A DNA stretch of 32,000 nt from contig NC_007517.1 of NCBI RefSeq assembly GCF_000012925.1, positions 2,640,001 through 2,672,000 of the forward strand. Reading direction: 5' to 3'. Positions 1,348 through 20,849 of the stretch are shown one piece after another; positions within the stretch are counted from its first letter, which is position 1, and each line of letters starts with the position of its first letter. The notes beneath the pieces were generated by a model. The model saw nothing but the letters and a program-made list of their open reading frames with translations. It searched no databases and was not told the origin of the DNA. The stretch comes from Geobacter metallireducens GS-15 (lineage in GTDB: Bacteria; Desulfobacterota; Desulfuromonadia; Geobacterales; Geobacteraceae). Both the position numbers and the translations under genes were made by a program.

Positions 1348-1352
1348 CTACG

Positions 1353-2306
1353 TCAGTAGCGAAATATATAGCGCTTCCAGAAGGGAGTTTTTAACAAACA
1401 ATAAAGCCAATCGGATTTTCGCTTGGTAAACAATGTATTCCAAGGTTTAGTCGAAGTTGCGTAATGGATAATAGCTGGGCTTTCAAAAGCTTCTAACAAC
1501 TCTTTTTCGCTGTAGATAGTGTCAAATCCAAGATTCTTTCTATATCCCTTAAACAGGTAATTAAACAAATTACCCTTTACTTTCAATTTCATTTTATGTC
1601 TGTCTTTAAACAAATTATACATATATGTGCAAAAGCAATAACGTAACGGGATATAATCAATTTTGTCTTTTAAGACTATATTCAATATATCCTGCTCTGG
1701 CTGAACAACAATAGAACTCATTCCCTGCAATGCAATCATAATATCGTCATATATATTATCTTCTCTCATTTTTTTGAGATTATAGACAAGAATCCCTGCT
1801 CCTATGCCGTTTTTAAGGATGGATTTAATTTCCGCGGGCATATTCATATTTTCATAATATTTATCAAGTTTTCCACACACCCTAACACCGGCAATATAAT
1901 TTTCTTCACTTAACATAAAGAAGACATCAGATATATCATCCTTGAATACAACATCAACGTCAGACCATATTATTTTGTCATACTGAGGAAATTCAAGCAT
2001 TGGCACAAGCTTATATAAACATTCTTTAGTATAATGCCCCTTCCCTTTAATATTTTCCCACTCATTCTTAAACGATTCGCCCATATCTCTGAATTCAACA
2101 CTTGCATTGCTAAAGAGTGAAACCACTTGCGCCAGAAGATCCCGATTCTCTTCAGATATATCTTCATGTAAGACAATAAAGTGGTATTTATACGATACAT
2201 TAACATTAGCCAACAACGAGTGAAACGCTACAGCGGCAGGAATTACATAATTATTATCAAATGCAAAAAATACTGGAATATTAAGTTCATTTATAGCCAC
2301 AAGCAC
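1353..2306 (-). CDS. Glycosyltransferase family 8 (RfaI/RfaJ-like LPS hexosyltransferase type), low-GC gene
   Basis: GT8 blocks are present: IPVFFAFDNNYVIPAAVAFHSLLAN, DKIIWSDVDVVF (DxD), GIGAGILVYNLKKMRED and PEQDILNIVL. GC is about 30%. The start is GTG 2306 or, more likely, GTG 2300 (AGGAG 5 nt upstream). Confidence 0.8.
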   Translation of the reverse strand: MLVAINELNIPVFFAFDNNYVIPAAVAFHSLLANVNVSYKYHFIVLHEDISEENRDLLAQVVSLFSNASVEFRDMGESFKNEWENIKGKGHYTKECLYKLVPMLEFPQYDKIIWSDVDVVFKDDISDVFFMLSEENYIAGVRVCGKLDKYYENMNMPAEIKSILKNGIGAGILVYNLKKMREDNIYDDIMIALQGMSSIVVQPEQDILNIVLKDKIDYIPLRYCFCTYMYNLFKDRHKMKLKVKGNLFNYLFKGYRKNLGFDTIYSEKELLEAFESPAIIHYATSTKPWNTLFTKRKSDWLYCLLKTPFWKRYIFRY

Positions 2307-2406
2307 TCCTGCAATCGTTGACTGTATAACCTATCGAGGGATATTGATAATCAATCAACTCCTCATATATACGCATAGCAACAACGTATATGTAAGATTA
2401 CTTATC

Positions 2407-2427
2407 ATAAAACAAAAACCTTTTTGT
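2407..2427 (-). terminator. Weak AT-rich stem-loop plus T-run immediately after the FkbM-like gene
   Basis: The minus strand reads ACAAAAAGGTTTTTGT followed by TTTTAT. The stem is about 6 bp and all A-T, so stability is low. Confidence 0.3.
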
Positions 2428-2432
2428 CAGTT

Positions 2433-3134
2433 TTAAGACATAGTTCTGGATGAATCTATAGCTATACTGTCGTTTCCATGAATAAACACTTCATACCCAT
2501 GTGACTCAAGCAAAATCGTAATTTCTTGCTGTTCTTCCTTCTTCAAGCTTTGATGCTCGTACTTTATCATTTTAGGTCGAATGACATCAAAATCTATCAT
2601 TTTAATTACTTCCCCATCATACCCTTCTACATCTATTTGCAATAAATTAACATGTTCGAACTTATTATCCCTTATTAGTTCCATAAGATGTACACATTCA
2701 ACTTCTTCAGAAACGATGTAATCAGACGGTAATCCTGATTGCTTATAATGATTCGGATCCAAAGAACCTATTCCTTGCACCCACTCAGGCAATAAATCCA
2801 ATTTTGCAGGATCGACATAATGCAAGACTGCCTTCTTTTTGTTCTGATGAACAGCACAGTTTACCGGGATTATATCCGGATATCTTGAATAGTTTTGTTT
2901 CAACTTTTCAAAGTAAATTTTCAATGGTTCAACCACAACCCCTCTGCATTTTCGCGATGTAACGAAACTGTACAACTCGTCAAAGCTGACACCATCATTC
3001 GCTCCTATCTGGATAAAACAAAAGTCGTCATCGCGATTATACTCTTCTATTAGGTATTGTTTAAATTTATCAATTTTTGTTATTTCATAGCCATAACGAC
3101 TAATAATTCTATTTACAATTGTTCTTACATGCAT
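2433..3134 (-). CDS. FkbM-family SAM-dependent methyltransferase, low-GC gene
   Basis: CFIQIGANDGVSFDELY (SAM-binding GxNxG-type block) and HVNLLQIDVEGYDGEVIK are the signature blocks of the FkbM family (TIGR01444-type). GC is about 30%. Confidence 0.8.
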   Translation of the reverse strand: MHVRTIVNRIISRYGYEITKIDKFKQYLIEEYNRDDDFCFIQIGANDGVSFDELYSFVTSRKCRGVVVEPLKIYFEKLKQNYSRYPDIIPVNCAVHQNKKKAVLHYVDPAKLDLLPEWVQGIGSLDPNHYKQSGLPSDYIVSEEVECVHLMELIRDNKFEHVNLLQIDVEGYDGEVIKMIDFDVIRPKMIKYEHQSLKKEEQQEITILLESHGYEVFIHGNDSIAIDSSRTMS

Positions 3135-3149
3135 ACCGTACTCCTTTTT

Positions 3150-4007
3150 TCATTTAGTATTACGAGTTTGAATAGTTCTTGATGAAAGAGATTCCTGATT
3201 CCGTTCACAATAATGCCTCAGTAACGGCTCCGGATACCGTGCGACTCTCGCCCCGAGATACTTGATCTTACGGAGCCTGTTCCAGTCACCAGGTTCCTGA
3301 TATCTGTAGGCCTCAATATCCCACGGGACGGCGGTAAACCACCGGTGGTAAAAAATAGACGATGTGGTGACCTTCCCTCCTGAAAATTCCTGGGCTTTTC
3401 TCATTGCCCAGCGCCCGTTTGAGCGCTCATACCAGAAGGGGTGCCAAACCAGATCGGCCTTCTCCCGCTGGATGAATTTGACCAGCTTTTCAATCCGGTC
3501 GGGGACGAATTCGTCATCGTCGTCGAGGTGGGTAATAAAGTCGCCCCGTGCCTGCGAAAGTGCGTAGTTGAACGGGACCGTGCCGGCAACACACCATCGG
3601 TGGAGGGGATTCTCCGGATAGTTCCCCCGTTCCGGCAGGTTGATGAAACGAAAACGGGGATCCGTTATTCCCTGTACAAGCCGGGGTGTGTCGTCGGTAC
3701 AGCAATCACCGACCACAATCAGTTCTATGTTGCCGTAAGACTGTTCGAGAACAGACCGAACAGAACGCTCCACCAGTAACTTGCCGCGATTGTACGTGCC
3801 GATGCACACCGTCACAAGGGGCGCATCTTTCTCATAGACCTCACGGTATTCGCGGGAATTTCTGTCAGCATAAAAACCGTCAAGCAATTCCCGGGGAATG
3901 TCCAGCCTCGACTTGAGCGTGTCAACTTCATTTTTGAGCTGATTTATCAGCTTATAATTTTTCACCACATTGAAGCTGTTAAAAAAATTAAGCAAATCAT
4001 CAATCAT
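3150..4007 (-). CDS. Glycosyltransferase family 2 with an N-terminal coiled-coil-like extension
   Basis: VTVCIGTYNRGKLLVERSVRSVLEQSYGNIELIVVGDCCTDDT and the HLDDDDEF DxD block. GGAAGGTG Shine-Dalgarno (SD) sequence upstream of ATG 4007. GC is intermediate, about 47%. Confidence 0.8.
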   Translation of the reverse strand: MIDDLLNFFNSFNVVKNYKLINQLKNEVDTLKSRLDIPRELLDGFYADRNSREYREVYEKDAPLVTVCIGTYNRGKLLVERSVRSVLEQSYGNIELIVVGDCCTDDTPRLVQGITDPRFRFINLPERGNYPENPLHRWCVAGTVPFNYALSQARGDFITHLDDDDEFVPDRIEKLVKFIQREKADLVWHPFWYERSNGRWAMRKAQEFSGGKVTTSSIFYHRWFTAVPWDIEAYRYQEPGDWNRLRKIKYLGARVARYPEPLLRHYCERNQESLSSRTIQTRNTK

Positions 4008-4025: not shown

Positions 4026-5066
4026 TCATCGGAACAACTGCCTGGAGAATATCGCCTCGGACGCCTTCCAGTTCCAATGGGTGTCGTCAGCGTAAAAAAC
4101 GTCCTTTTCACCTCTGCGCACCTCGTCGAGAAGGACCTTCTTGGTGTCGACAAAGATATAACGCTTCGGAAGAGGACGCAACTTTTCAAAAAAATCACTC
4201 GTCGGATAGGGGTTATCCACGATGAACTCGCTGTACAGATTGTATTTGTCCACAACAGGCATGAAACAGAGCCGGATTCCCTTTTGGGCGAGCTTGTCGG
4301 ACAACGTGTTCAGGTTCCGGTTGAGCGCCTCGATCTGGTCGGCTGTGGCGAACTTCTTGTACTTCAGAAAGAGAAGCGTTGATGGTTCTGCTGTTGTGAA
4401 CAGGTCCCCCTTCAGGTGCCTCACATGGACTTTGCCGACGAAGGCGTGATCGGAGATAGGATAGAGGAGATTGTACAGGATGAACTTGAAATTGCCGGTA
4501 TTGATGAAGCTCACCTCCGGCATCTGGCCAGCCCCTCCCTTTGCCCGGTAACCTTTGAGTTGCTCCTCGGAAAGTATCCTCGAGAAATCAATCGGCTGGG
4601 CGAACTCGTCGAAGCTGAACTTTTCCGCCGCCTCGATGAGGACATACCGGGGCTTCAGCCGGTCCAGATATCCGTTGTTGCACCAGATGGACACGGTGGT
4701 TATGGAATCTATGCCGCGGTATTGGCCGACATTGAGGACCGACACGCCGCTCAGGGACGCCATGTAGTCCTGATAGTAACGGTTTCGCCCACCGGCAGCC
4801 CCCTGCGAGAACGAGTCCCCGATGGTTAGGACATCAATCTTCTGCCCTGCATAATCGGAAACCTCGAGGTGCCGTTTCGGGAGATCAACATGGTTCGTCC
4901 TCGGAACTTTCACGCGGGCGAGGTACCCCATGCGAGCCAGATCACCGCCGGCGTAATGTTTATCGGTCAGCAGATCTTCGGTGACCACTTCCCACAGAAG
5001 GAAATTCAGGCCGATGAACAGCGCCACTACAGCTAGAAAGATACGACACCAACGCTTATATTTCAT
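4026..5066 (-). CDS. Membrane-anchored periplasmic SGNH-fold O-acyltransferase of the AlgJ/AlgX/DltD type
   Basis: N-terminal signal-anchor CRIFLAVVALFIGLNFLLW. SGNH block I is LTIGDSFSQG. The C-terminal D-x-x-H block is FYADDTHWNW, as in the AlgJ/AlgX/PatB-type partners of MBOATs. It sits 8 nt downstream of the MBOAT gene. Confidence 0.65.
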   Translation of the reverse strand: MKYKRWCRIFLAVVALFIGLNFLLWEVVTEDLLTDKHYAGGDLARMGYLARVKVPRTNHVDLPKRHLEVSDYAGQKIDVLTIGDSFSQGAAGGRNRYYQDYMASLSGVSVLNVGQYRGIDSITTVSIWCNNGYLDRLKPRYVLIEAAEKFSFDEFAQPIDFSRILSEEQLKGYRAKGGAGQMPEVSFINTGNFKFILYNLLYPISDHAFVGKVHVRHLKGDLFTTAEPSTLLFLKYKKFATADQIEALNRNLNTLSDKLAQKGIRLCFMPVVDKYNLYSEFIVDNPYPTSDFFEKLRPLPKRYIFVDTKKVLLDEVRRGEKDVFYADDTHWNWKASEAIFSRQLFR

Positions 5067-5074
5067 CAGAAACC

Positions 5075-6568
5075 CTAAAACTGAAAATAGAGAAATTCAC
5101 TCACCGTGCTCATGCTCATGAGAGCCCAGGCAAAGGTGACGATGGCCAGGGTGCAGCTCTTCCAGGAGGGCTTCAGCATCTCGGCAATCTCATTGGAGTT
5201 TTTTGCAAGCAGAATGAACGGAAACGCAAGGGCGACCGAAATCCATGTCTCATCTTTGCCGTCGATCCCTTGCAGCCACGGGCCGAACTGCACGCCCCAC
5301 TCGCCGAGTTTTGCCAGAAGCGGTATTTTCGCGAGGGAATGGTTCAGCATCAAGCCGTTGACGCCGAACATGCCCGCAAGCACTTTTGTCGCGTCGTGCC
5401 ACTCTTTCGCTCTGAAGAACACGAAGGAAAGATTTGCGAAGTTGAATGTAAGAAACCAGCCGAGCGCCGGATGCATCCACCATTTGCGCTTTTTCCAGTA
5501 GTGATTGAGCACCAGGGCGGTACCGTGCAAGCACCCCCACAGGATAAAGGTCCATCCCGCCCCATGCCAGAACCCGGAGATGAGCATTGCCACGAAGATG
5601 GCGGCCAGTGAATTGGCAAAGGTTATGGAACCGAACGAACGGAGGATCGGCGTATAGACGTAGGTGGTGATGAACTCGGTCAGCGTGATGTGCCACCGCT
5701 TCCAGAAGTCGATGATGCTCCTTGCCTTGTAGGGGCTGTTGAAGTTGACCGGCAGGCGGATATTGAACAGCAGGCCGATGCCGATAGCCATGTCGCTGTA
5801 GCCGCTGAAGTCGAAATAGAGCTGGAAGGTGTAACTCAGACTTGCGAGCCACGCCTCGACAAAGGTAAGCGTCCCCGCCTTGTCGAAACCCGCAGTTGCC
5901 CATTCGGAGAACCGGTCGGCAAGGACGACCTTCTTAAACAGCCCCATGGAGAACAAGAGTATCCCGAGATACACGTTCCGATAGCGGAGAACCTTGGTGC
6001 GGAGCGATGCGAACTGCGGCATCATGTCGCTATGGTGGAGGATCGGGCCGGCCAGAAGGTGCGGGAAAAAGGTGACAAACAGGGCGTAATTCAGAAGATT
6101 TCGCTCTTCCACCAGCCCTTCGTACGCATCCACCAGAAAGGCTATCTGCGTGATGGTGAAGAAGCTGATCCCAAGCGGGAGAACGATCCTGAGAAGCGGA
6201 AGCCCGGCATCCAGTGCCGAATTGACGTTGGTTATGAAAAAGTCGACATACTTGAAGAACCCGAGCAACAGGAGGTTCGCGACTATGCCGAAGACGAAGA
6301 TCGCCCTGCGTGATACTCCCTTCCTGGCTCCGGCCCCATCGGACAGGAGACTGCCGATGGTGTAATTGAACAGGATCGACCCCAGGATGAGGGGAACATA
6401 CTTAATATCCCACCAGCCGTAAAAAAAGAGGGATGCGAAGAGGAGCCAGGAGTTTGCGGCGACGGCGAGGCGCTTTCCGTTCAGCAGGTAATACAGGAGC
6501 AGGGTTACCGGCAGGAACGCCAGGATGAATTCGTAGGAGTTGAAAAGCATAAATCTACGTCTTCTCAC
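5075..6568 (-). CDS. MBOAT-family membrane-bound O-acyltransferase (AlgI/DltB/PatA type)
   Basis: Polytopic membrane protein with MLFNSYEFILAFLPV, FWKRWHITLTEFITTYVY and the catalytic-His block ISGFWHGAGWTFILWGCLHG. ATG 6568 forms an ATGA overlap with the carrier-protein stop. Family-typical N-termini suggest the alternative ATG 6550 (MLFNS...). Confidence 0.85.
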   Translation of the reverse strand: MRRRRFMLFNSYEFILAFLPVTLLLYYLLNGKRLAVAANSWLLFASLFFYGWWDIKYVPLILGSILFNYTIGSLLSDGAGARKGVSRRAIFVFGIVANLLLLGFFKYVDFFITNVNSALDAGLPLLRIVLPLGISFFTITQIAFLVDAYEGLVEERNLLNYALFVTFFPHLLAGPILHHSDMMPQFASLRTKVLRYRNVYLGILLFSMGLFKKVVLADRFSEWATAGFDKAGTLTFVEAWLASLSYTFQLYFDFSGYSDMAIGIGLLFNIRLPVNFNSPYKARSIIDFWKRWHITLTEFITTYVYTPILRSFGSITFANSLAAIFVAMLISGFWHGAGWTFILWGCLHGTALVLNHYWKKRKWWMHPALGWFLTFNFANLSFVFFRAKEWHDATKVLAGMFGVNGLMLNHSLAKIPLLAKLGEWGVQFGPWLQGIDGKDETWISVALAFPFILLAKNSNEIAEMLKPSWKSCTLAIVTFAWALMSMSTVSEFLYFQF

Positions 6569-6804
6569 TTCCTCGCAAGTTTCTTGTCGACCAGGTCGGC
6601 CAGATCGCCCACATTCTTCAGTTTCTGCAGCTCGCCCAGGGCAAACTTGATCTTGTAGTGCACCTCCAGGGACACAATGAGGTTCATGTGCGAAAGAGAA
6701 TCCCAGGCATCGATGTCATTGGCCGAAGTCTCGCGGGTCAGGACGATGCTGTCGTCGTCGAAAACCTGGCGGAAGATCGGGGTGAGTGCGTCCAGGGTCG
6801 GCAT
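6565..6804 (-). CDS. Stand-alone acyl/peptidyl carrier protein (DltC-like role)
   Basis: 79 aa and acidic. The phosphopantetheine-attachment context is DIDAWDSLSHMNLIVSLE (DSL serine). The GGAGGA SD lies within the last codons of the ligase gene (GGAGGAATGAACTATG). Confidence 0.75.
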   Translation of the reverse strand: MPTLDALTPIFRQVFDDDSIVLTRETSANDIDAWDSLSHMNLIVSLEVHYKIKFALGELQKLKNVGDLADLVDKKLARK

Positions 6805-6807
6805 AGT

Positions 6808-8427
6808 TCATTCCTCCATGGTAGAGATGTCCCCGGCGTCCTGCCCCAGGTAGGTTGCCTTCAGGTAGCGGCGCATGATCTTGCCGCTCTTGTTCTTGGG
6901 AATCCGTTCGAGGCAGTGGATCTCGTGGGGGGTTGCAACCGAAGAAAGCTTGTTGGCCAGGTGAAGCCGAATCTTCAACTGGAGTTCGTCGGTCAAGGCA
7001 TACCCCAGGTGGAGGGATACAAAGGCCACGACCTTTTCGTAGAGCAGTTCGTCGGGGGCACCGATCACCCCTGCCTCAGCCACCTCGTGGACCTCGATGA
7101 GCGCGCTCTCGATCTCGAAGGGGCTGATGAGATGCCCAGCCGTATTGATAACATCGTCGCTCCTGCCGACGAACCAGAAATATCCGTCGGTATCGCGATA
7201 GGCGACATCACCCGTGCAGTAGAAGCCGTTCCTGAACTTTGATGCATAGGCACCGGCGTTGTTCAGGTAAGAGGAGAACATGGAAGCCCATCCCGGCTTG
7301 AGGCACAGGTCCCCCTGTTGGCCGGAGCCGAGGAGTTCCCCCTCGGTGGATATGACAACCGCCTCGATGCCATCCACCGGCTTCCCCATGGAACCCGGTT
7401 TCACCGGGATTCCCGGACGGTTGGCAATCATAATGGCGCCGGTTTCGGTCTGGAACCAGGTATCATAAACCTCTTTTGCCAGAACGCGGCGGGCCCAGTG
7501 GATCACCTCCGGGTTGAGCGGCTCGCCAACACTGCAAATATGCCGGAGCATGCCGAGGTCAAAGCGGGCGAAAAGGAGCGGTTCCTCCCTCATGAGCATT
7601 CGCAGGGCAGTCGGCGCAGTGTACCAGACCGAAACCTCTTCCCGCTCCAGGATCTCGAACCACTGCTCTGCTGCATAGCCGCCGCCGAAGTGAACCTGGG
7701 TCACGCCCATGCTCCAGGGGCCGATAATGCCGTAGGAGGTTCCGGTTACCCATCCCTGATCAGCGGTGCACCAGTACACATCATCCTCACGAAGCCCGAG
7801 GACCAGCTGGGCAGTCGAGTTGATCATAGTCACCGCGCCGTGGCGATGGAGCACCCCCTTCGGCTTTCCCGTGGACCCAGAGGTGTAATGGAGAACCGAC
7901 GGCGCATCCGCAGGTGTCAGGGGAGTGACGAACGCGGGGGATGCCTCCGCCATGAGCCGGCTGTAACTGAAAATGCCGTCGGCCTGGTGATCGTCGCTGT
8001 CAACCAGGATGATGAAGCGAAGATCCGGCAGTTGCGGGCGGATTCGGATAATTTTCCGGAGAAGGCTCTTCTTGGTGATGATGCCGCACGCACGGGCGTC
8101 GGCGAGACGGTCCAGGAGAGCCTCTTCGCCGAAGTTGGAGAAAAGGGTGCCTGCAACCGCGGTAAGTTTCAATGCGCCAAGAAAGGCAACGAACTGTTCC
8201 GGCTGCTTCGGCAGGTACGTGAAGAACACCTCGCCAGCCCCGACCCCCAGGGAGGCGAGAACATTGGCGAATCTGCCCGAAAGGCCGTCAAGCTCGTTGA
8301 AGGTGTAATCACGACGCTCCATGCCGGGCGTGAGCCACCGCATGGCAACGCGATCTCCCCTCCCCAGTCGGCATTGGCGGGAGGTACAGATATCCCCGAT
8401 GTTGTACTGGCCGTTTTCTATCAGCAT
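6808..8427 (-). CDS. AMP-forming adenylating ligase of the acetyl-CoA-synthetase (ACS/AcsA) type
   Basis: Blocks seen: HYTSGSTGKPKG, YWCTADQGWVTGTSYGIIGP, VWYTAPTALRMLM, YDTWFQTETG, FYCTGDVAYRDTDGYFWFVGRSDDVINTAGHLISPFEIESAL and IPKNKSGKIMRR. These are ACS-type rather than DltA-type. Confidence 0.85.
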   Translation of the reverse strand: MLIENGQYNIGDICTSRQCRLGRGDRVAMRWLTPGMERRDYTFNELDGLSGRFANVLASLGVGAGEVFFTYLPKQPEQFVAFLGALKLTAVAGTLFSNFGEEALLDRLADARACGIITKKSLLRKIIRIRPQLPDLRFIILVDSDDHQADGIFSYSRLMAEASPAFVTPLTPADAPSVLHYTSGSTGKPKGVLHRHGAVTMINSTAQLVLGLREDDVYWCTADQGWVTGTSYGIIGPWSMGVTQVHFGGGYAAEQWFEILEREEVSVWYTAPTALRMLMREEPLLFARFDLGMLRHICSVGEPLNPEVIHWARRVLAKEVYDTWFQTETGAIMIANRPGIPVKPGSMGKPVDGIEAVVISTEGELLGSGQQGDLCLKPGWASMFSSYLNNAGAYASKFRNGFYCTGDVAYRDTDGYFWFVGRSDDVINTAGHLISPFEIESALIEVHEVAEAGVIGAPDELLYEKVVAFVSLHLGYALTDELQLKIRLHLANKLSSVATPHEIHCLERIPKNKSGKIMRRYLKATYLGQDAGDISTMEE

Positions 8428-8446: not shown

Positions 8447-9538
8447 TCATGGTCGACCTCCCGTTTCCAGCAATCCAGCCAGTTCGGTCATCACCTCTTC
8501 AGGGGTGATGGCGTCCATGCAGGCAATGGGTCCACCGTCAGTTCGAGAGCACTCCTCACGGTTACAGGGGACGCACTCCCATTCTTTCTGAATCACGACA
8601 ATCGATCCCTGGCGCTGGATTGTTCCGCGAGGACCGTACGGCGCAGAGCCGGGAAAATCGTTTGGCCAGGGTCCCCAGTGATGCACCAGCGTCGGGCCAT
8701 AGAGGGCGACCGTGGGGACATCCAGTGCCGCGGCCATATGGGTGACGACGGTATCCACCCCCACGTATCCCCTCCCCCGCCGGATCACGGCGGCCAGTCG
8801 CGGGAAGGAGAGCACGTCGCCGATGGAGCCGGTGCCCTCAGGCGCCACGGCCAGAATGTCCGCCAGCATCTTTGCATCGTCGGCGTTCGGCGACACCGTG
8901 AAAAGCGGTTTCAACCCCGCATCCAGAATCAGTCCGGCAAGCCGGCGCCAGCCGTCAACCGTCCAGCATTTGTACTCCTTGCGCGAGTACGGATGAAGTA
9001 CTACGTAGCCAGCGTCCCCGAACAACCGTGCCGCATATGCCTCGTCTTCCGCGTCGCCACCCGCGACAACCCGTGGACGCGGAGGGATGGCAAGAGGTTC
9101 CAGCCGGGTCAGAACGAGAGGAACGATGTGCATCCGGTCGTCATAGAGACGACAGGAGGACAGCAGCAGTTTTTTCCACCACTCCTTGCCGCGAAAATAG
9201 GAAAAACCGTACGACCGGCGACCGGCCGCAACGCAGAAAAGCGTGGTACGATCAGAAACATTGCTGCCGATAGCGTAATCGTATTTCTTCCAGAGCGAAA
9301 GGAGAAGCGGCACGACCGATTTCTGCGGATCAATGGTATGGACGGACCGTATGAGAGGATTCTTCGCCAGGACCCCTTCCGTTCCTTTCAGAACCAGGTA
9401 ATCAATCGTGGCATCCGGGAAACGCTCCTTGATCGAGAGGGCCAGAGGGGTCGAAAGGAGCACGTCACCGATGTAACGGAGCGAGACGATCAGGAATGAC
9501 GGCGCGGCCGATCTATGGAAATTCGAACGGCTAGTAAT
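8447..9538 (-). CDS. Glycosyltransferase family 9 (ADP-heptose:LPS heptosyltransferase family); start codon unresolved
   Basis: FLIVSLRYIGDVLLSTPLALSIKERFPDATIDYLV (the GT9 N-terminal block begins at about 9499) and the C-terminal Cys cluster WECVPCNREECSRTDGGPIACMDAITPEEV. The ORF is open up to ATG 9739, but that region overlaps the C-terminus of the upstream GT2. In-frame candidates are ATT 9538 (GGGAGG 7 nt upstream), GTG 9619 and TTG 9643. Confidence 0.75.
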   Translation of the reverse strand: MTSRSNFHRSAAPSFLIVSLRYIGDVLLSTPLALSIKERFPDATIDYLVLKGTEGVLAKNPLIRSVHTIDPQKSVVPLLLSLWKKYDYAIGSNVSDRTTLFCVAAGRRSYGFSYFRGKEWWKKLLLSSCRLYDDRMHIVPLVLTRLEPLAIPPRPRVVAGGDAEDEAYAARLFGDAGYVVLHPYSRKEYKCWTVDGWRRLAGLILDAGLKPLFTVSPNADDAKMLADILAVAPEGTGSIGDVLSFPRLAAVIRRGRGYVGVDTVVTHMAAALDVPTVALYGPTLVHHWGPWPNDFPGSAPYGPRGTIQRQGSIVVIQKEWECVPCNREECSRTDGGPIACMDAITPEEVMTELAGLLETGGRP

Positions 9539-13194: not shown

Positions 13195-13382
13195 TAATCG
13201 CGTTTCCCCGCTTCTCCAATTTTTTCCGCTTCGTCCACCAGCATGACCGGAATTCCGTCCCGCACGGGGTAGACGAGCCGACATGAATCGCAGACAAGCC
13301 CCACCTCGTCGTCCTGGAAGACTACTTCCCCCTTGCACTGAGGACAGGCCAGAATCTTGAGCAATTCGCTTGATAATGCCAT
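13194..13382 (-). CDS. Trm112/YcaR-family (UPF0434) small zinc-ribbon protein
   Basis: MALSSELLKILACPQCKGEVVFQDDEVGLVCDSCRLVYPVRDGIPVMLVDEA (CPxC...CxxC plus the GIPxML block). AAGGAG lies 9 nt upstream of ATG 13382; the ATG at 13391 abuts the SD directly. Confidence 0.8.
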   Translation of the reverse strand: MALSSELLKILACPQCKGEVVFQDDEVGLVCDSCRLVYPVRDGIPVMLVDEAEKIGEAGKRD

Positions 13383-13397
13383 AGAGGGCATCTCCTT

Positions 13398-18807: not shown

Positions 18808-19908
18808 CTATGCCTTGAGGGCCGATTTCACCACGTCCACGACCCGGCGTACCTGTTCTTCGGTCATCTCCGGGAAGATGGGGAGGGACATGCAGCGGGA
18901 TGCCACCTCCTCGGCCGCGGGGAGGGAAACACCGGCGTAGTCGGCGGCGAAGACATCCTGCTTGTGCAGAGGAATCGGATAGTAAACCGCCGAGGCAATC
19001 CCCGCGTCGGTGAGGGCCTTCATGATGGCGTCGCGGCGGTCGGTGAGAAGCGTGTACTGGTGGTAGACATGGGTTCCCTTGCCATCCTCGAAGGGAGGGG
19101 TGGCGCCGGTGCCGGCCAGCAGTTCGCTGTAGAGGTGAGCCACGCGGCGGCGCCCCTCGCTGTATTCCCGGATGTGCTTGAGCTTCACCCGCAGGATCAC
19201 GGCCTGTATCTCGTCAAGGCGGCTGTTGTAGCCAATGACCGAGTGATGGTAGCGAACCTTGCTCCCGTGGTTGCGGAGCACCTTCACCCGCTCGGCCAGT
19301 TCCGGGCAGGAGGTGGTGACAAGGCCGCCATCGCCATAGCACCCCAGGTTCTTGCTGGGGAAGAAGCTGAAGGCCCCCAGCGCCCCGAAGGTGCCGGTCA
19401 TGCGACCATTAACGTCGGCGCCGAAGGACTGGGCGCAGTCTTCGATCATCAAAAGACCATGCTTGGTGCAGAGGGCCTGGATGGCATCCATGTCCGCCGG
19501 CTGGCCGAAGAGATGAACCGGAAGGACCGCCTTGGTCCTGGGGGTGATGGCCGCCTCGATCCTGGCAGGATCGATATTGAAGCTCTTGGGGTCCACGTCC
19601 ACGAAGACCGGCGTGGCCCCCACGTAACGGATCGCCTCGGCAGTGGCGATAAAGGTGAAGGGAGAGGTGATCACCTCATCACCCTCCGTGATCCCTGCAG
19701 CGGCAAGGGCCAGGTGGAGGGCGTCGGTCCCCGAGGCAACGCCGATGGCATGCTTTACGCCGAGAAACGCGGCCGCTTCCTCCTCGAACGCCGTCACGTT
19801 GGGCCCGAGAATGAACTGGGTCTTTTCAAGGGCTTCCAGAATGCCCCTGTCGATCTCCTCCTTTATTGCATGATACTGCACCTTCAAATCCACCATCGGA
19901 ATATTCAT
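18808..19908 (-). CDS. gnnB: DegT-family PLP aminotransferase, GnnB-like (UDP-3-keto-GlcNAc transaminase candidate)
   Basis: MNIPMVDLKVQYHAIKEEIDRGILEALEKTQFILGPNVTAFEEEAAAFLGVKHAIGVASGTDALHLAL and FSFFPSKNLG (PLP lysine). Its position between lpxA and lpxB beside a Gfo/Idh/MocA oxidoreductase matches the gnnA-gnnB arrangement. The start is ATG 19908. Confidence 0.6.
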   Translation of the reverse strand: MNIPMVDLKVQYHAIKEEIDRGILEALEKTQFILGPNVTAFEEEAAAFLGVKHAIGVASGTDALHLALAAAGITEGDEVITSPFTFIATAEAIRYVGATPVFVDVDPKSFNIDPARIEAAITPRTKAVLPVHLFGQPADMDAIQALCTKHGLLMIEDCAQSFGADVNGRMTGTFGALGAFSFFPSKNLGCYGDGGLVTTSCPELAERVKVLRNHGSKVRYHHSVIGYNSRLDEIQAVILRVKLKHIREYSEGRRRVAHLYSELLAGTGATPPFEDGKGTHVYHQYTLLTDRRDAIMKALTDAGIASAVYYPIPLHKQDVFAADYAGVSLPAAEEVASRCMSLPIFPEMTEEQVRRVVDVVKSALKA

Positions 19909-19916
19909 GGTTTCCC

Positions 19917-20849
19917 TCACAGTTTTTTGCTGATCTTTATCGCCGTTTCCAGCGCCCGCTTGCCGTCCTGGCCCGATACCACCGGCTTTGCGCCCGTCCG
20001 GACGCACTCCAGGAACGAGGCTATTTCGGACTTCAGGGCATCTCCCTGATCAAACGACTTTTCCTCCATGTCAACCTTGGGAACACCGGGAAGCATTTCT
20101 CCGCTCCCCTTGCGGAACACCGCCAGCTTCTTGTTCTGGAAGTCGACGGAGATGTAGGAGTCGGCCTGGAATATCCGCATCTTCCGCTCGCTCTTGAGGC
20201 TGATGCGGCTGGCCGTGACGTTGGCCACGCAACCGTTCTCGAACTGGATGCGGGCGTTGGCGATATCCTCCTCGTCGGTGAAGACCGGGGCGCCAATGGA
20301 GCTGATCTGCTTCACCGGCGAGCCGACAATGGTCTGGATGATGTCGATGTCATGGATCATCAGATCAAGAACCACGTTCACATCGGTTCCCCGGGGCTTG
20401 AAGGGAGCGATCCGGATCGACTCAATGAAGCGGGGCCCGGTCAGAAGTCCCTTGAGGCCCACGATCACCGGGTTGAACCGCTCAAGGTGCCCCACCTGGA
20501 AGACCACACCGTTATCTTCGGCAAGCCGGATGAGTTCGTCGGCCTCTTCGACCGTGGTCGTAACCGGTTTCTCCAGGAGGACGTGAACGCCCCGTTCCAG
20601 AAACGCCCGCGCCACCTCGAAGTGGAACTGGGTCGGCACCACGATGCTGACGGCGTCGACCTTGTCGAGCAGCTCCCGGTAATCGGTGTAGGGGGCCGTC
20701 CCCACCTTGGCGGCCACCTCCTCCGCCCGGGGCCTGCTGGTATCAACCACCCCGATCAGATCCGACTCAGGGAGCTGGGCGAATTTCTCCGCGTGGAAGA
20801 GGCCCAGATAGCCAACGCCGATCACCGCGGTCCGAATCTTTTCCGTCAT
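19917..20849 (-). CDS. gnnA: Gfo/Idh/MocA-family NAD-dependent oxidoreductase, GnnA-like
   Basis: Rossmann N-terminus IRTAVIGVGYLGLFHAEKF plus the EKP block VHVLLEKPV. ATGA overlap with the lpxA stop. Confidence 0.6.
   Translation of the reverse strand: MTEKIRTAVIGVGYLGLFHAEKFAQLPESDLIGVVDTSRPRAEEVAAKVGTAPYTDYRELLDKVDAVSIVVPTQFHFEVARAFLERGVHVLLEKPVTTTVEEADELIRLAEDNGVVFQVGHLERFNPVIVGLKGLLTGPRFIESIRIAPFKPRGTDVNVVLDLMIHDIDIIQTIVGSPVKQISSIGAPVFTDEEDIANARIQFENGCVANVTASRISLKSERKMRIFQADSYISVDFQNKKLAVFRKGSGEMLPGVPKVDMEEKSFDQGDALKSEIASFLECVRTGAKPVVSGQDGKRALETAIKISKKL

Follow-up and report, generated by a model that had tools for sequence, protein, structure and literature searches.

A predicted carrier-protein-dependent MBOAT/SGNH pathway for envelope glycan O-acylation in the lipopolysaccharide operon of Geobacter metallireducens

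Why should an enzyme annotated as an acetate-activating ligase be encoded beside a small carrier protein and two candidate acyltransferases in the middle of a lipopolysaccharide (LPS) operon? This question is raised by four genes in a stretch of 32,000 nucleotides (nt) from Geobacter metallireducens GS-15 (contig NC_007517.1, positions 2,640,001 to 2,672,000), the whole of which is called the window here and in whose numbering positions are given unless a locus label precedes them. The module encodes an adenylate-forming ligase resembling acetyl-coenzyme A (CoA) synthetase (Acs), a carrier protein, a membrane-bound O-acyltransferase (MBOAT), plus an SGNH-fold protein. Its products are likely to make up an MBOAT/SGNH pathway that is fed by a carrier protein and O-acylates an envelope glycan, with the LPS core as the most likely target; the nature of the acyl group, the identity of the acceptor and all chemical steps of this pathway are inferred. 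The features on which the argument turns are as follows.

6808 to 8427, minus strand: Acs-like adenylate-forming ligase, 539 amino acids (aa), ABB32565.1, UniRef Q39T59 'acetate--CoA ligase'
7453 to 7455, minus strand: codon of ligase Phe325, at the acetate-pocket Trp414 position (DTWFQTETG vs DTWWQTETG), from the alignment to 2p2f
7129 to 7131, minus strand: codon of ligase Leu433, at the Arg526 position of the A8 motif (GHL vs GHR/GER), from the same alignment
6880 to 6882, minus strand: codon of ligase Lys516, the catalytic adenylation Lys609, kept, from the same alignment
6812 to 6817, minus strand: GGAGGA ribosome-binding site of the carrier gene, within the final ligase codons
6565 to 6804, minus strand: carrier protein, 79 aa, ABB32564.1, Q39T60
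6697 to 6699, minus strand: codon of carrier Ser36 (WDSLSH), phosphopantetheine attachment site, from motif conservation
5075 to 6550, minus strand: MBOAT, 491 aa from the ATG at 6550, ABB32563.1, Q39T61
5078 to 5095, minus strand: FLYFQF, the final six MBOAT codons, a fused FxYxxF motif with Tyr488 as proposed acyl acceptor, from homologue comparison
4026 to 5066, minus strand: SGNH-fold protein, 346 aa, ABB32562.1, Q39T62

The module and the pathway proposed for it

A check of the open reading frames (ORFs) in the window DNA placed all four genes on the minus strand at these coordinates, and their products are identical to the G. metallireducens entries ABB32562-ABB32565. An earlier, sequence-only reading of the same DNA had described four tightly packed minus-strand genes in this order and at these positions, with a 3-nt gap between ligase and carrier, a GGAGGA site in the last ligase codons and an 8-nt gap before the SGNH gene, all of which can be read in the letters: the ligase TGA (6810-6808) is followed after 3 nt by the carrier ATG at 6804, the MBOAT TAG is separated by 8 nt from the SGNH ATG, and 18 nt lie between the SGNH TGA and the next gene, a family 2 glycosyltransferase (GT2). 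Its ATGA overlap between the MBOAT start and the carrier stop has to be corrected. The letters are GTGA, and the long start is a GTG at 6568, which would add six residues (497 aa). Gene callers place the MBOAT start at the ATG at 6550, 14 nt past the carrier stop, and this choice is supported by the N-termini of orthologues, which keep MLFNS(Y/F)EF.

In the proposed pathway, the Acs-derived ligase would adenylate a small carboxylic acid, either acetate or one slightly larger (e.g., C3-C4), and would thioesterify it onto the Ser36 phosphopantetheine of the carrier protein instead of CoA. The MBOAT, with His329 as its catalytic residue, would accept the acyl group of the carrier on the cytoplasmic side and pass it to its own Tyr488 at the periplasmic face. 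From there the membrane-anchored SGNH protein would take it onto Ser85 and esterify a sugar hydroxyl of the lipid A-core flipped by MsbA.

The MBOAT matches its Pfam family with 110 bits and aligns to DltB (6BUG, 104 bits), the RWH (His287) and FWHG (His329) blocks of the two proteins coinciding; it reaches 166.5 bits against the NCBIfam DltB model TIGR04091, whose cut-off is 375. Past the DltB-like core follow about 110 residues that are absent from DltB, with two hydrophobic segments within residues 433-483, and the protein closes with the fused FxYxxF motif. Exactly F[LIV]YFxF forms the C-terminus of every complete MBOAT surveyed. PatA has been reported to auto-acetylate the Tyr of FxYxxF from acetyl-CoA, and PatB to take an acetyl-Tyr peptide as donor, whereas in Dlt the motif is borne by a separate microprotein, DltX (PMC12148441). 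The gaps of 3-14 nt within the module are too short for a small ORF of the DltX kind, and none would be needed because the MBOAT carries the motif fused to its C-terminus.

For the SGNH protein, ALGX was the sole Pfam match (37.5 bits, residues 238-337 only), and no NCBIfam family, hence no DltD model, matched it. Its GDS (residues 83-85, with Ser85) and DDTHW (327-331, with Asp327 and His330) blocks are invariant in 24 homologues of 46-89% identity. The AlphaFold2 model (pLDDT 81.8) shows an N-terminal helix (2-33) followed by an alpha/beta domain, with which Foldseek matched SGNH enzymes, including rhamnogalacturonan acetylesterase (RGAE) and PatB, at TM-scores of 0.3-0.5 (0.33-0.50 for PatB) and 10-12% identity, modest values that support an SGNH fold and no specific family. 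The catalytic domain is expected to be periplasmic, since a basic N-terminus (MKYKR) precedes a single transmembrane segment (9-27). The protein is thus proposed as a predicted periplasmic O-acyltransferase with a putative Ser85/Asp327/His330 triad. Both the N-terminal anchor and the GDS and DTHW blocks that the sequence-only reading had attributed to it were found.

Ligase, carrier protein and the linkage between their genes

Two Pfam domains make up the ligase, AMP-binding (238.7 bits) and AMP-binding_C (63.8 bits). In NCBIfam it matches CoA ligases for acetate, methylbutyrate and propionate best, led by the acetate-CoA ligase family NF003313 (682.3 bits, under the curated cut-off of 729); TIGR02188 gave 443.8 bits (cut-off 724.95) and TIGR01733 151 bits (cut-off 317), and no DltA model stands among the top 25. 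The best solved relative is the 572-aa AcsA (PDB 9g79; 482 bits, 44% identity over the whole length), compared with which the ligase N-terminus is approximately 35 aa shorter. These family and structure matches agree with the earlier description of the ligase as acetyl-CoA-synthetase-type and not DltA-like, and the five signature motifs on which that description relied were all located.

Ligase residues were mapped by alignment to Salmonella enterica Acs (2p2f). Three residues of the acetate pocket (Val310, Thr311 and Val386) are retained, and the fourth, Trp414, is replaced by Phe325. The adenylate-forming core motifs are all present, including the TSGSTGKPKG P-loop and SGKIMRR with the catalytic Lys516, and Leu433 takes the place of Arg526, a residue that in Acs acts in the thioester-forming step. 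DTWFQTETG and GHL[IVL]SPFE are common to all 21 carrier-linked ligases (535-545 aa where full-length), in which the Phe and the Leu are invariant and Val310, Thr311, Val386 and Lys609 are kept. Two further markers were considered and rejected: the Arg584 position as a sign of lost CoA binding, which is Ala or Ser in the closest relatives and Arg in other members of the ligase subclade described below, and Arg191/Arg194, which fall in a loop also missing from B. subtilis-type AcsA.

The Acs-like pocket argues for a predicted acyl group of C2-C4, and an acid slightly larger than acetate would be possible because the pocket Trp is replaced by Phe. The invariance of this replacement, together with a dedicated carrier despite free acetyl-CoA, argues against plain acetate; the reportedly large cavity of the carrier argues for a bigger group. 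An amino acid such as D-alanine or glycine, transferred to lower envelope charge in the manner of Dlt or AlmEFG, would suit the four-part logic shared with Dlt, and carrier-dependent envelope aminoacylation is known in the Gram-negative Bordetella (dra) and Vibrio (AlmEFG). Such a cargo is nevertheless extremely improbable here, given the place of the ligase in the Acs clade and not among the amino-acid-adenylating enzymes, its TIGR01733 score and list of matches, and the conserved Val310, Thr311 and Val386.

The carrier protein passes the Pfam PP-binding cut-off narrowly (22.0 vs 20.8 bits), and NCBIfam matched it by generic acyl carrier protein (ACP) models alone, every one below its cut-off. 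All 23 orthologues compared share WDS[LI][ST]H with Ser36. The sequence agrees at 100% identity with chain A of PDB 2LML, a 'putative acyl carrier protein' of G. metallireducens GS-15 whose structure was solved by nuclear magnetic resonance (NMR). It is very probably GmACP3 (gmet_2339), in view of this identity to a GS-15 ACP, of its LPS surroundings and of the ligase accession, which is consecutive and fits Gmet_2340. A 2011 study puts forward in its title a putative LPS-biosynthetic role for GmACP3 (Ramelot et al. 2011, Biochemistry 50:1442; PMC3063093), and a later paper citing that study describes holo-GmACP3 with a rigid bound phosphopantetheine arm and 23 nuclear Overhauser effects between phosphopantetheine and protein. 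The sequence-only reading had made its scheme depend on a modifiable serine in this 79-aa protein; Ser36 supplies it, and the later paper describes the holo form.

A long-chain or hydroxy fatty acid delivered to lipid A by carrier and ligase, with the MBOAT as a lipid acyltransferase, would be in keeping with an operon that holds lpxA, lpxB, lpxD, lpxK, kdtA and msbA, and eukaryotic MBOATs do transfer long acyl chains. The 2011 study is said to name gmet_2339 and to describe a WDSLxH/N motif as well as a large hydrophobic cavity like that of ACPs carrying medium or long acyl chains, and its reported proposal was that lipid A is acylated with long-chain hydroxy fatty acids; the LPS role in its title points the same way. 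On the other hand, the ligase keeps three of the four acetate-pocket residues and has Phe as the fourth, so that no open pocket is seen, and its best-matching families are those of acetate-, propionate- and methylbutyrate-CoA ligases rather than FadD or AasS. The combination of an MBOAT FxYxxF shuttle with a periplasmic SGNH partner is a hallmark of glycan O-acylation, and the lipid A acyltransferases known so far are LpxL/LpxM-family enzymes and not MBOATs. A fatty-acid cargo is therefore considered very improbable.

To examine how far the four genes belong together, one genome per species was scanned with an alignment of SGNH homologues, which yielded 57 loci (L numbers are locus labels here and below), and the six-frame ORFs of these loci were searched with the four window proteins. 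Of the 57 surveyed genomes, 20 show the ligase, carrier, MBOAT and SGNH genes colinear on one strand, 19 of these genomes being assigned to Geobacterales, Desulfuromonadales or 'Deltaproteobacteria' and one a Holophagaceae metagenome-assembled genome (MAG). Since the colinear set recurs in 20 other genomes, the arrangement is not due to chance, which bears out the co-occurrence that the sequence-only reading had proposed to look for. The spacing between ligase and carrier is 3-4 nt in the Geobacter clade. Both genes are absent from at least 19 MBOAT-SGNH loci of other phyla, each with at least 3.8 kilobases (kb) of upstream sequence, and a profile built from the carriers found only one more weak match over the surveyed loci (L042, 2.8 kb downstream). 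The carrier-less loci come from Campylobacterota, Nitrospirota, Paenibacillus, Spirochaetes, Bacteroidota and Acidobacteriota, and they indicate that the ligase-carrier pair is a clade-specific addition to an older MBOAT-SGNH pair. Against the window MBOAT, carrier-linked MBOATs scored 682-1040 bits and unlinked ones at most 575.

Several surveyed loci depart from the standard layout. In L013:5744-10221, L014:1751-5187, L015:4552-9113 and L032:4564-8047, a single MBOAT is followed by a tandem array of two to four SGNH paralogues, which suggests that several acceptor positions or types are served by one relay; the sequence of L014 starts within the carrier gene. A second, divergent SGNH-carrier-MBOAT set (L021:2-2555) lies upstream of the main set in L021, its MBOAT scoring 227 bits and ending in FVYFQF, and a single visible ligase there appears to serve both carriers and both MBOATs. 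In a Desulfuromonadales MAG (L011:4816-5500), a ligase remnant of about 20 codons (IRGDQFNVGW) sits between the GT9 (heptosyltransferase-family) and carrier genes; this loss could be a real deletion or an assembly artefact.

A wider view was obtained by searching the ligase against 1.84 billion cluster representatives. A signature termed FHL (Phe in place of Trp414, together with a His-Leu A8 motif) was present in 14 clusters at 50% identity, all of 507-555 aa. In a neighbour-joining tree, a crude distance method from which the three signature columns and seven fragmentary or aberrant sequences had been taken out, the 14 clusters were monophyletic, exactly so in 42 of 50 bootstraps and with at most one intruder in 47 of 50. 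A first such tree, with fragments included, had set the group of the window apart from the other FHL clusters and was judged unreliable.

A carrier gene was found within 3 kb in nine of the 11 sampled FHL cluster representatives, in varied gene orders; the group of the window is one of the nine. The carrier gene lies directly downstream of the ligase on two short contigs (L063, L064); L065, adjoining GT4 genes, holds a carrier, a ligase, an MBOAT ending in FVYFVF and a 320-aa protein; and in L077 a decarboxylase dependent on pyridoxal phosphate and the ligase face a carrier, an MBOAT ending in FIYTQF and a GDSL-like protein. Three loci combine an SGNH protein, a short MBOAT (397-430 aa, no C-terminal motif), a microprotein of 38-43 aa ending in FIYTDF, FQYAGF or FQYVGF, a DltC-like LDSFG carrier and an FHL ligase. 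These are metagenomic operons (L067:129-4630, L072:236-4800 and L074:2634-6963) with a DltD-like SGNH protein, and, as read from their genes, each is a complete Dlt architecture including a DltX-like microprotein, with an Acs-type ligase in the DltA slot. L075 has no MBOAT; its carrier and FHL ligase lie beside a hexapeptide acyltransferase and a DegT aminotransferase in a flagellin locus.

Some of these relatives show features of their own. The FHL ligase of L077:4537-10363 (P0122) has a degenerate P-loop (TPGPTAQARA) and Arg replacing the catalytic Lys, and may be an inactive variant or one of altered chemistry. In L075:4847-9790, the 78-aa carrier and sugar dehydrogenases stand between flagellin and fliD genes, and the acyl groups for cytoplasmic N-acylation of a flagellin glycan may come from this ligase-carrier pair. 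P0128 (L070:1-9000), a Trp-type Acs-like ligase with His-Leu in A8, lies beside an asparagine-synthase-like amidotransferase in a Wzx/Wzy polysaccharide locus with no carrier nearby, and here an Acs-like enzyme may be put to another use in modifying glycans.

A linkage that outlasts changes of gene order and the exchange between fused and separate shuttles is the strongest evidence that the FHL clade serves carrier proteins. We tentatively propose that the subclade consists of unrecognised and widespread short-chain acid:carrier-protein ligases that would feed non-acetyl groups to glycan-modifying enzymes in many phyla; if this is true, the first MBOAT/SGNH pathway to act on the LPS core, and the first fused-motif one with a carrier-protein donor, would be that of the Geobacter module. 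The recipients may include fused-shuttle MBOATs (Geobacter, L065 and L077), MBOATs with DltX-like microproteins (L067, L072 and L074) and the hexapeptide acyltransferase of L075.

The linkage also bears on the published view of the ligase. The 2009 genome paper presented the G. metallireducens acetyl-CoA synthetase Gmet_2340 as a route for scavenging acetate (PMC2700814), and by inference the ligase is Gmet_2340, as the carrier and ligase accessions are consecutive and the description fits. A true acetyl-CoA synthetase might supply acetyl-CoA that the MBOAT uses directly, like PatA or AlgI, with a separate role for the carrier. Consistent with this are that published annotation, the 44% identity to B. 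subtilis-type AcsA with all core motifs and the catalytic Lys, an NF003313 score of 682 against a cut-off of 729, and an MBOAT close to carrier-less MBOATs whose fused motif is as in acetyl-CoA-dependent PatA. However, ligase and carrier always occur together and are linked across gene orders and phyla, carrier-less MBOAT-SGNH loci do without a dedicated Acs, Trp414 and Arg526 are replaced throughout a monophyletic clade, and in three loci the ligase fills the DltA slot of a full Dlt-type operon. A supply of free acetyl-CoA is accordingly rated as quite improbable, and reading the ligase as a metabolic acetyl-CoA synthetase is probably wrong.

Operon context and the acceptor glycan

Carrier-dependent O-acylation, the reading favoured here, leaves the acceptor to be named, for which the surroundings of the module are informative. 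The window is a lipid A/core region with every gene on the minus strand, in the order bamA, skp, lpxD, lpxA, a pair of GFO/MocA oxidoreductase and DegT aminotransferase genes, lpxB, an msbA-like ABC transporter gene, kdtA, lpxK, GT9, GT2, an unknown gene, GT2, GT9, the four-gene module, GT2, an FkbM methyltransferase gene, GT8 and a PglD-like acetyltransferase gene. The immediate neighbours of the module are the following.

8447 to 9463, minus strand: GT9 (heptosyltransferase III-like) gene, directly upstream of the module, same operon
3150 to 4007, minus strand: GT2 glycosyltransferase gene, 18 nt downstream of the SGNH gene, same operon

The module is flanked by gaps of 18-19 nt, and intergenic gaps overall are 3-19 nt. 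A consensus scan for promoter- and terminator-like sites was uninformative, with counts not above those of shuffled sequence and no site at the module junctions. With gaps this small and no excess of such sites, the module can be read as belonging to a single long operon. Among the carrier-linked loci, GT9 heptosyltransferase-family genes lie within 7 kb in 16 of 21, and a GT9 orthologue is directly upstream of the module in L006-L008, L011, L012, L020, L024, L026 and L039.

The same machinery might act on peptidoglycan, an exopolysaccharide or another periplasmic glycan, its position in the LPS operon being incidental. No GT9 gene is found near five carrier-linked loci (L013, L015, L021, L031 and L032), UniRef calls the G. 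hydrogenophilus MBOAT a 'peptidoglycan O-acetyltransferase', the closest solved transferase fold is that of PatB, a peptidoglycan enzyme, and the characterised bacterial MBOAT-SGNH pairs all act on non-LPS polymers (PMC9558356); the LPS acceptor is itself assigned from neighbourhood. Yet the module is inserted among core glycosyltransferase genes with gaps of 3-19 nt, the GT9 association holds in most carrier-linked loci, and a protein with 10-12% identity to PatB and TM-scores of 0.33-0.50 is not a PatB orthologue. A non-LPS acceptor is thus regarded as unlikely. The overall logic of the sequence-only reading, a Dlt-like carrier-dependent acylation in an LPS setting, agreed with all computational tests, among them the GT9 counts and the profile searches it had listed (AMP-binding with AMP-binding_C, PP-binding, MBOAT and ALGX), each of which returned a match. 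Beyond it go the fused FxYxxF of the MBOAT, the Trp-to-Phe replacement in the ligase, the solved carrier structure with the LPS role already suggested for it, and the published Acs reading of the ligase.

A number of observations weigh against an LPS-directed, carrier-dependent relay. The LPS core is a predicted acceptor drawn from gene neighbourhood only. The ligase retains every Acs core motif and falls only 47 bits short of the acetate-CoA ligase cut-off, and acetyl-CoA may therefore still be its product. Trp-type relatives can likewise have Leu where Arg526 would stand, and the residue at the Arg584 position has no diagnostic value. No carrier lies near the FHL representatives P0156, whose contig is 3.4 kb long, and P0169, and in L011 the carrier, MBOAT and SGNH genes persist beside what is only a remnant of the ligase. 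The reportedly large GmACP3 cavity fits poorly with a C2-C4 acyl group. Were the acid acetate, the use of a carrier would be left without explanation, given the acetyl-CoA pool of the cell.

Three other features of the operon were observed. The GT8 and FkbM methyltransferase genes (1350-3130) have 33-40% G+C compared with 54-64% across the remaining operon, and by composition look like a recently acquired outer-core segment. Between lpxA and lpxB, the GFO/MocA oxidoreductase and DegT aminotransferase genes (18808-20849, identified by Pfam domains) are arranged as GnnA/GnnB and would yield a GlcN3N-based lipid A. A 62-aa Trm112p-like ORF (13195-13383, minus strand) lies between lpxK and GT9 and was called in identical contigs (L001:2489-2677); the ORF list of the window overview covered frames of at least 100 aa.

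Comparison with known systems

The combination of an Acs-type ligase, a carrier and an MBOAT was not found described in the full-text literature searched, which is weak evidence because most subscription journals lay outside the search. A 2022 review names AlgI, PatA, DltB and WssH alone as bacterial MBOATs that have been studied, and it treats acylation of LPS solely via AT3 proteins (PMC9558356). The link of the carrier to LPS has already been proposed, while no description appears to exist of the ligase clade, the hybrid design or the Dlt-like relay. PDB 2LML, a structure without established function, gains a testable role, and the 2009 claim of acetate scavenging via Gmet_2340, whose annotation has spread in UniRef as 'acetate--CoA ligase', is called into question. 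It is also predicted that Geobacter LPS bears an undescribed ester substituent, and outer-surface chemistry matters for mineral and electrode contact in G. metallireducens.

Like AcsA (9g79), the window ligase keeps the adenylate-forming motifs, the catalytic Lys and three of four acetate-pocket residues; unlike it, its gene adjoins a carrier gene in an envelope locus and is not in a metabolic context. Where the GmACP3 proposal reportedly concerned lipid A and long-chain hydroxy fatty acids, a Dlt-like MBOAT/SGNH relay of a short acid is envisaged here. AlmEFG of Vibrio cholerae and dra of Bordetella are similar in that a dedicated ligase and carrier feed the modification of LPS or an outer-membrane component. 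Their ligases are DltA-like and load glycine or D-alanine, and AlmG is a cytoplasmic-face acyltransferase of the LpxL family, not an MBOAT/SGNH pair.

The likeness to Dlt (DltX/A/B/C/D, which D-alanylates teichoic acid in Firmicutes) extends to one operon with a ligase, a carrier of about 80 aa, an MBOAT and an anchored SGNH protein, to the alignment of the MBOAT with DltB including both His residues, and to an FxYxxF acyl-Tyr motif. The differences are an Acs-type ligase; a motif fused to a longer MBOAT (491 aa vs approximately 400-425 aa for DltB) that misses the DltB score, with no DltX; a carrier motif WDSLxH in place of the LDS(M/F)G of DltC-type carriers; and a Gram-negative host with an LPS context. 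DltC and DltD family models are absent from the NCBIfam matches of the carrier and the SGNH protein.

With the O-acetylation systems of peptidoglycan (PatA/PatB), alginate (AlgI/J/F/X) and cellulose (WssH/I), the module shares a long MBOAT with FxYxxF fused on a C-terminal extension and a separate SGNH partner, and its SGNH protein resembles PatB and AlgX in matching the PatB fold by its model and Pfam ALGX. The catalytic order differs: it is Asp-His...Ser in AlgX and AlgJ, and the canonical Ser...Asp-x-x-His in the window protein. PatA/AlgI/WssH-type systems use an acyl-CoA donor and no carrier protein (PMC12148441), whereas the gene content of the window's clade always includes both a carrier and a ligase. 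A fused motif together with a carrier and ligase is therefore a gene-content counter-example to the view, taken in the same paper, that only Dlt uses a carrier. Because a carrier donor is combined with a fused FxYxxF and no DltX, the module would be a hybrid of a Dlt-like donor with a PatA-like shuttle, and the two MBOAT designs would behave as interchangeable parts, offering a natural system in which to ask what sets the donor choice of an MBOAT.

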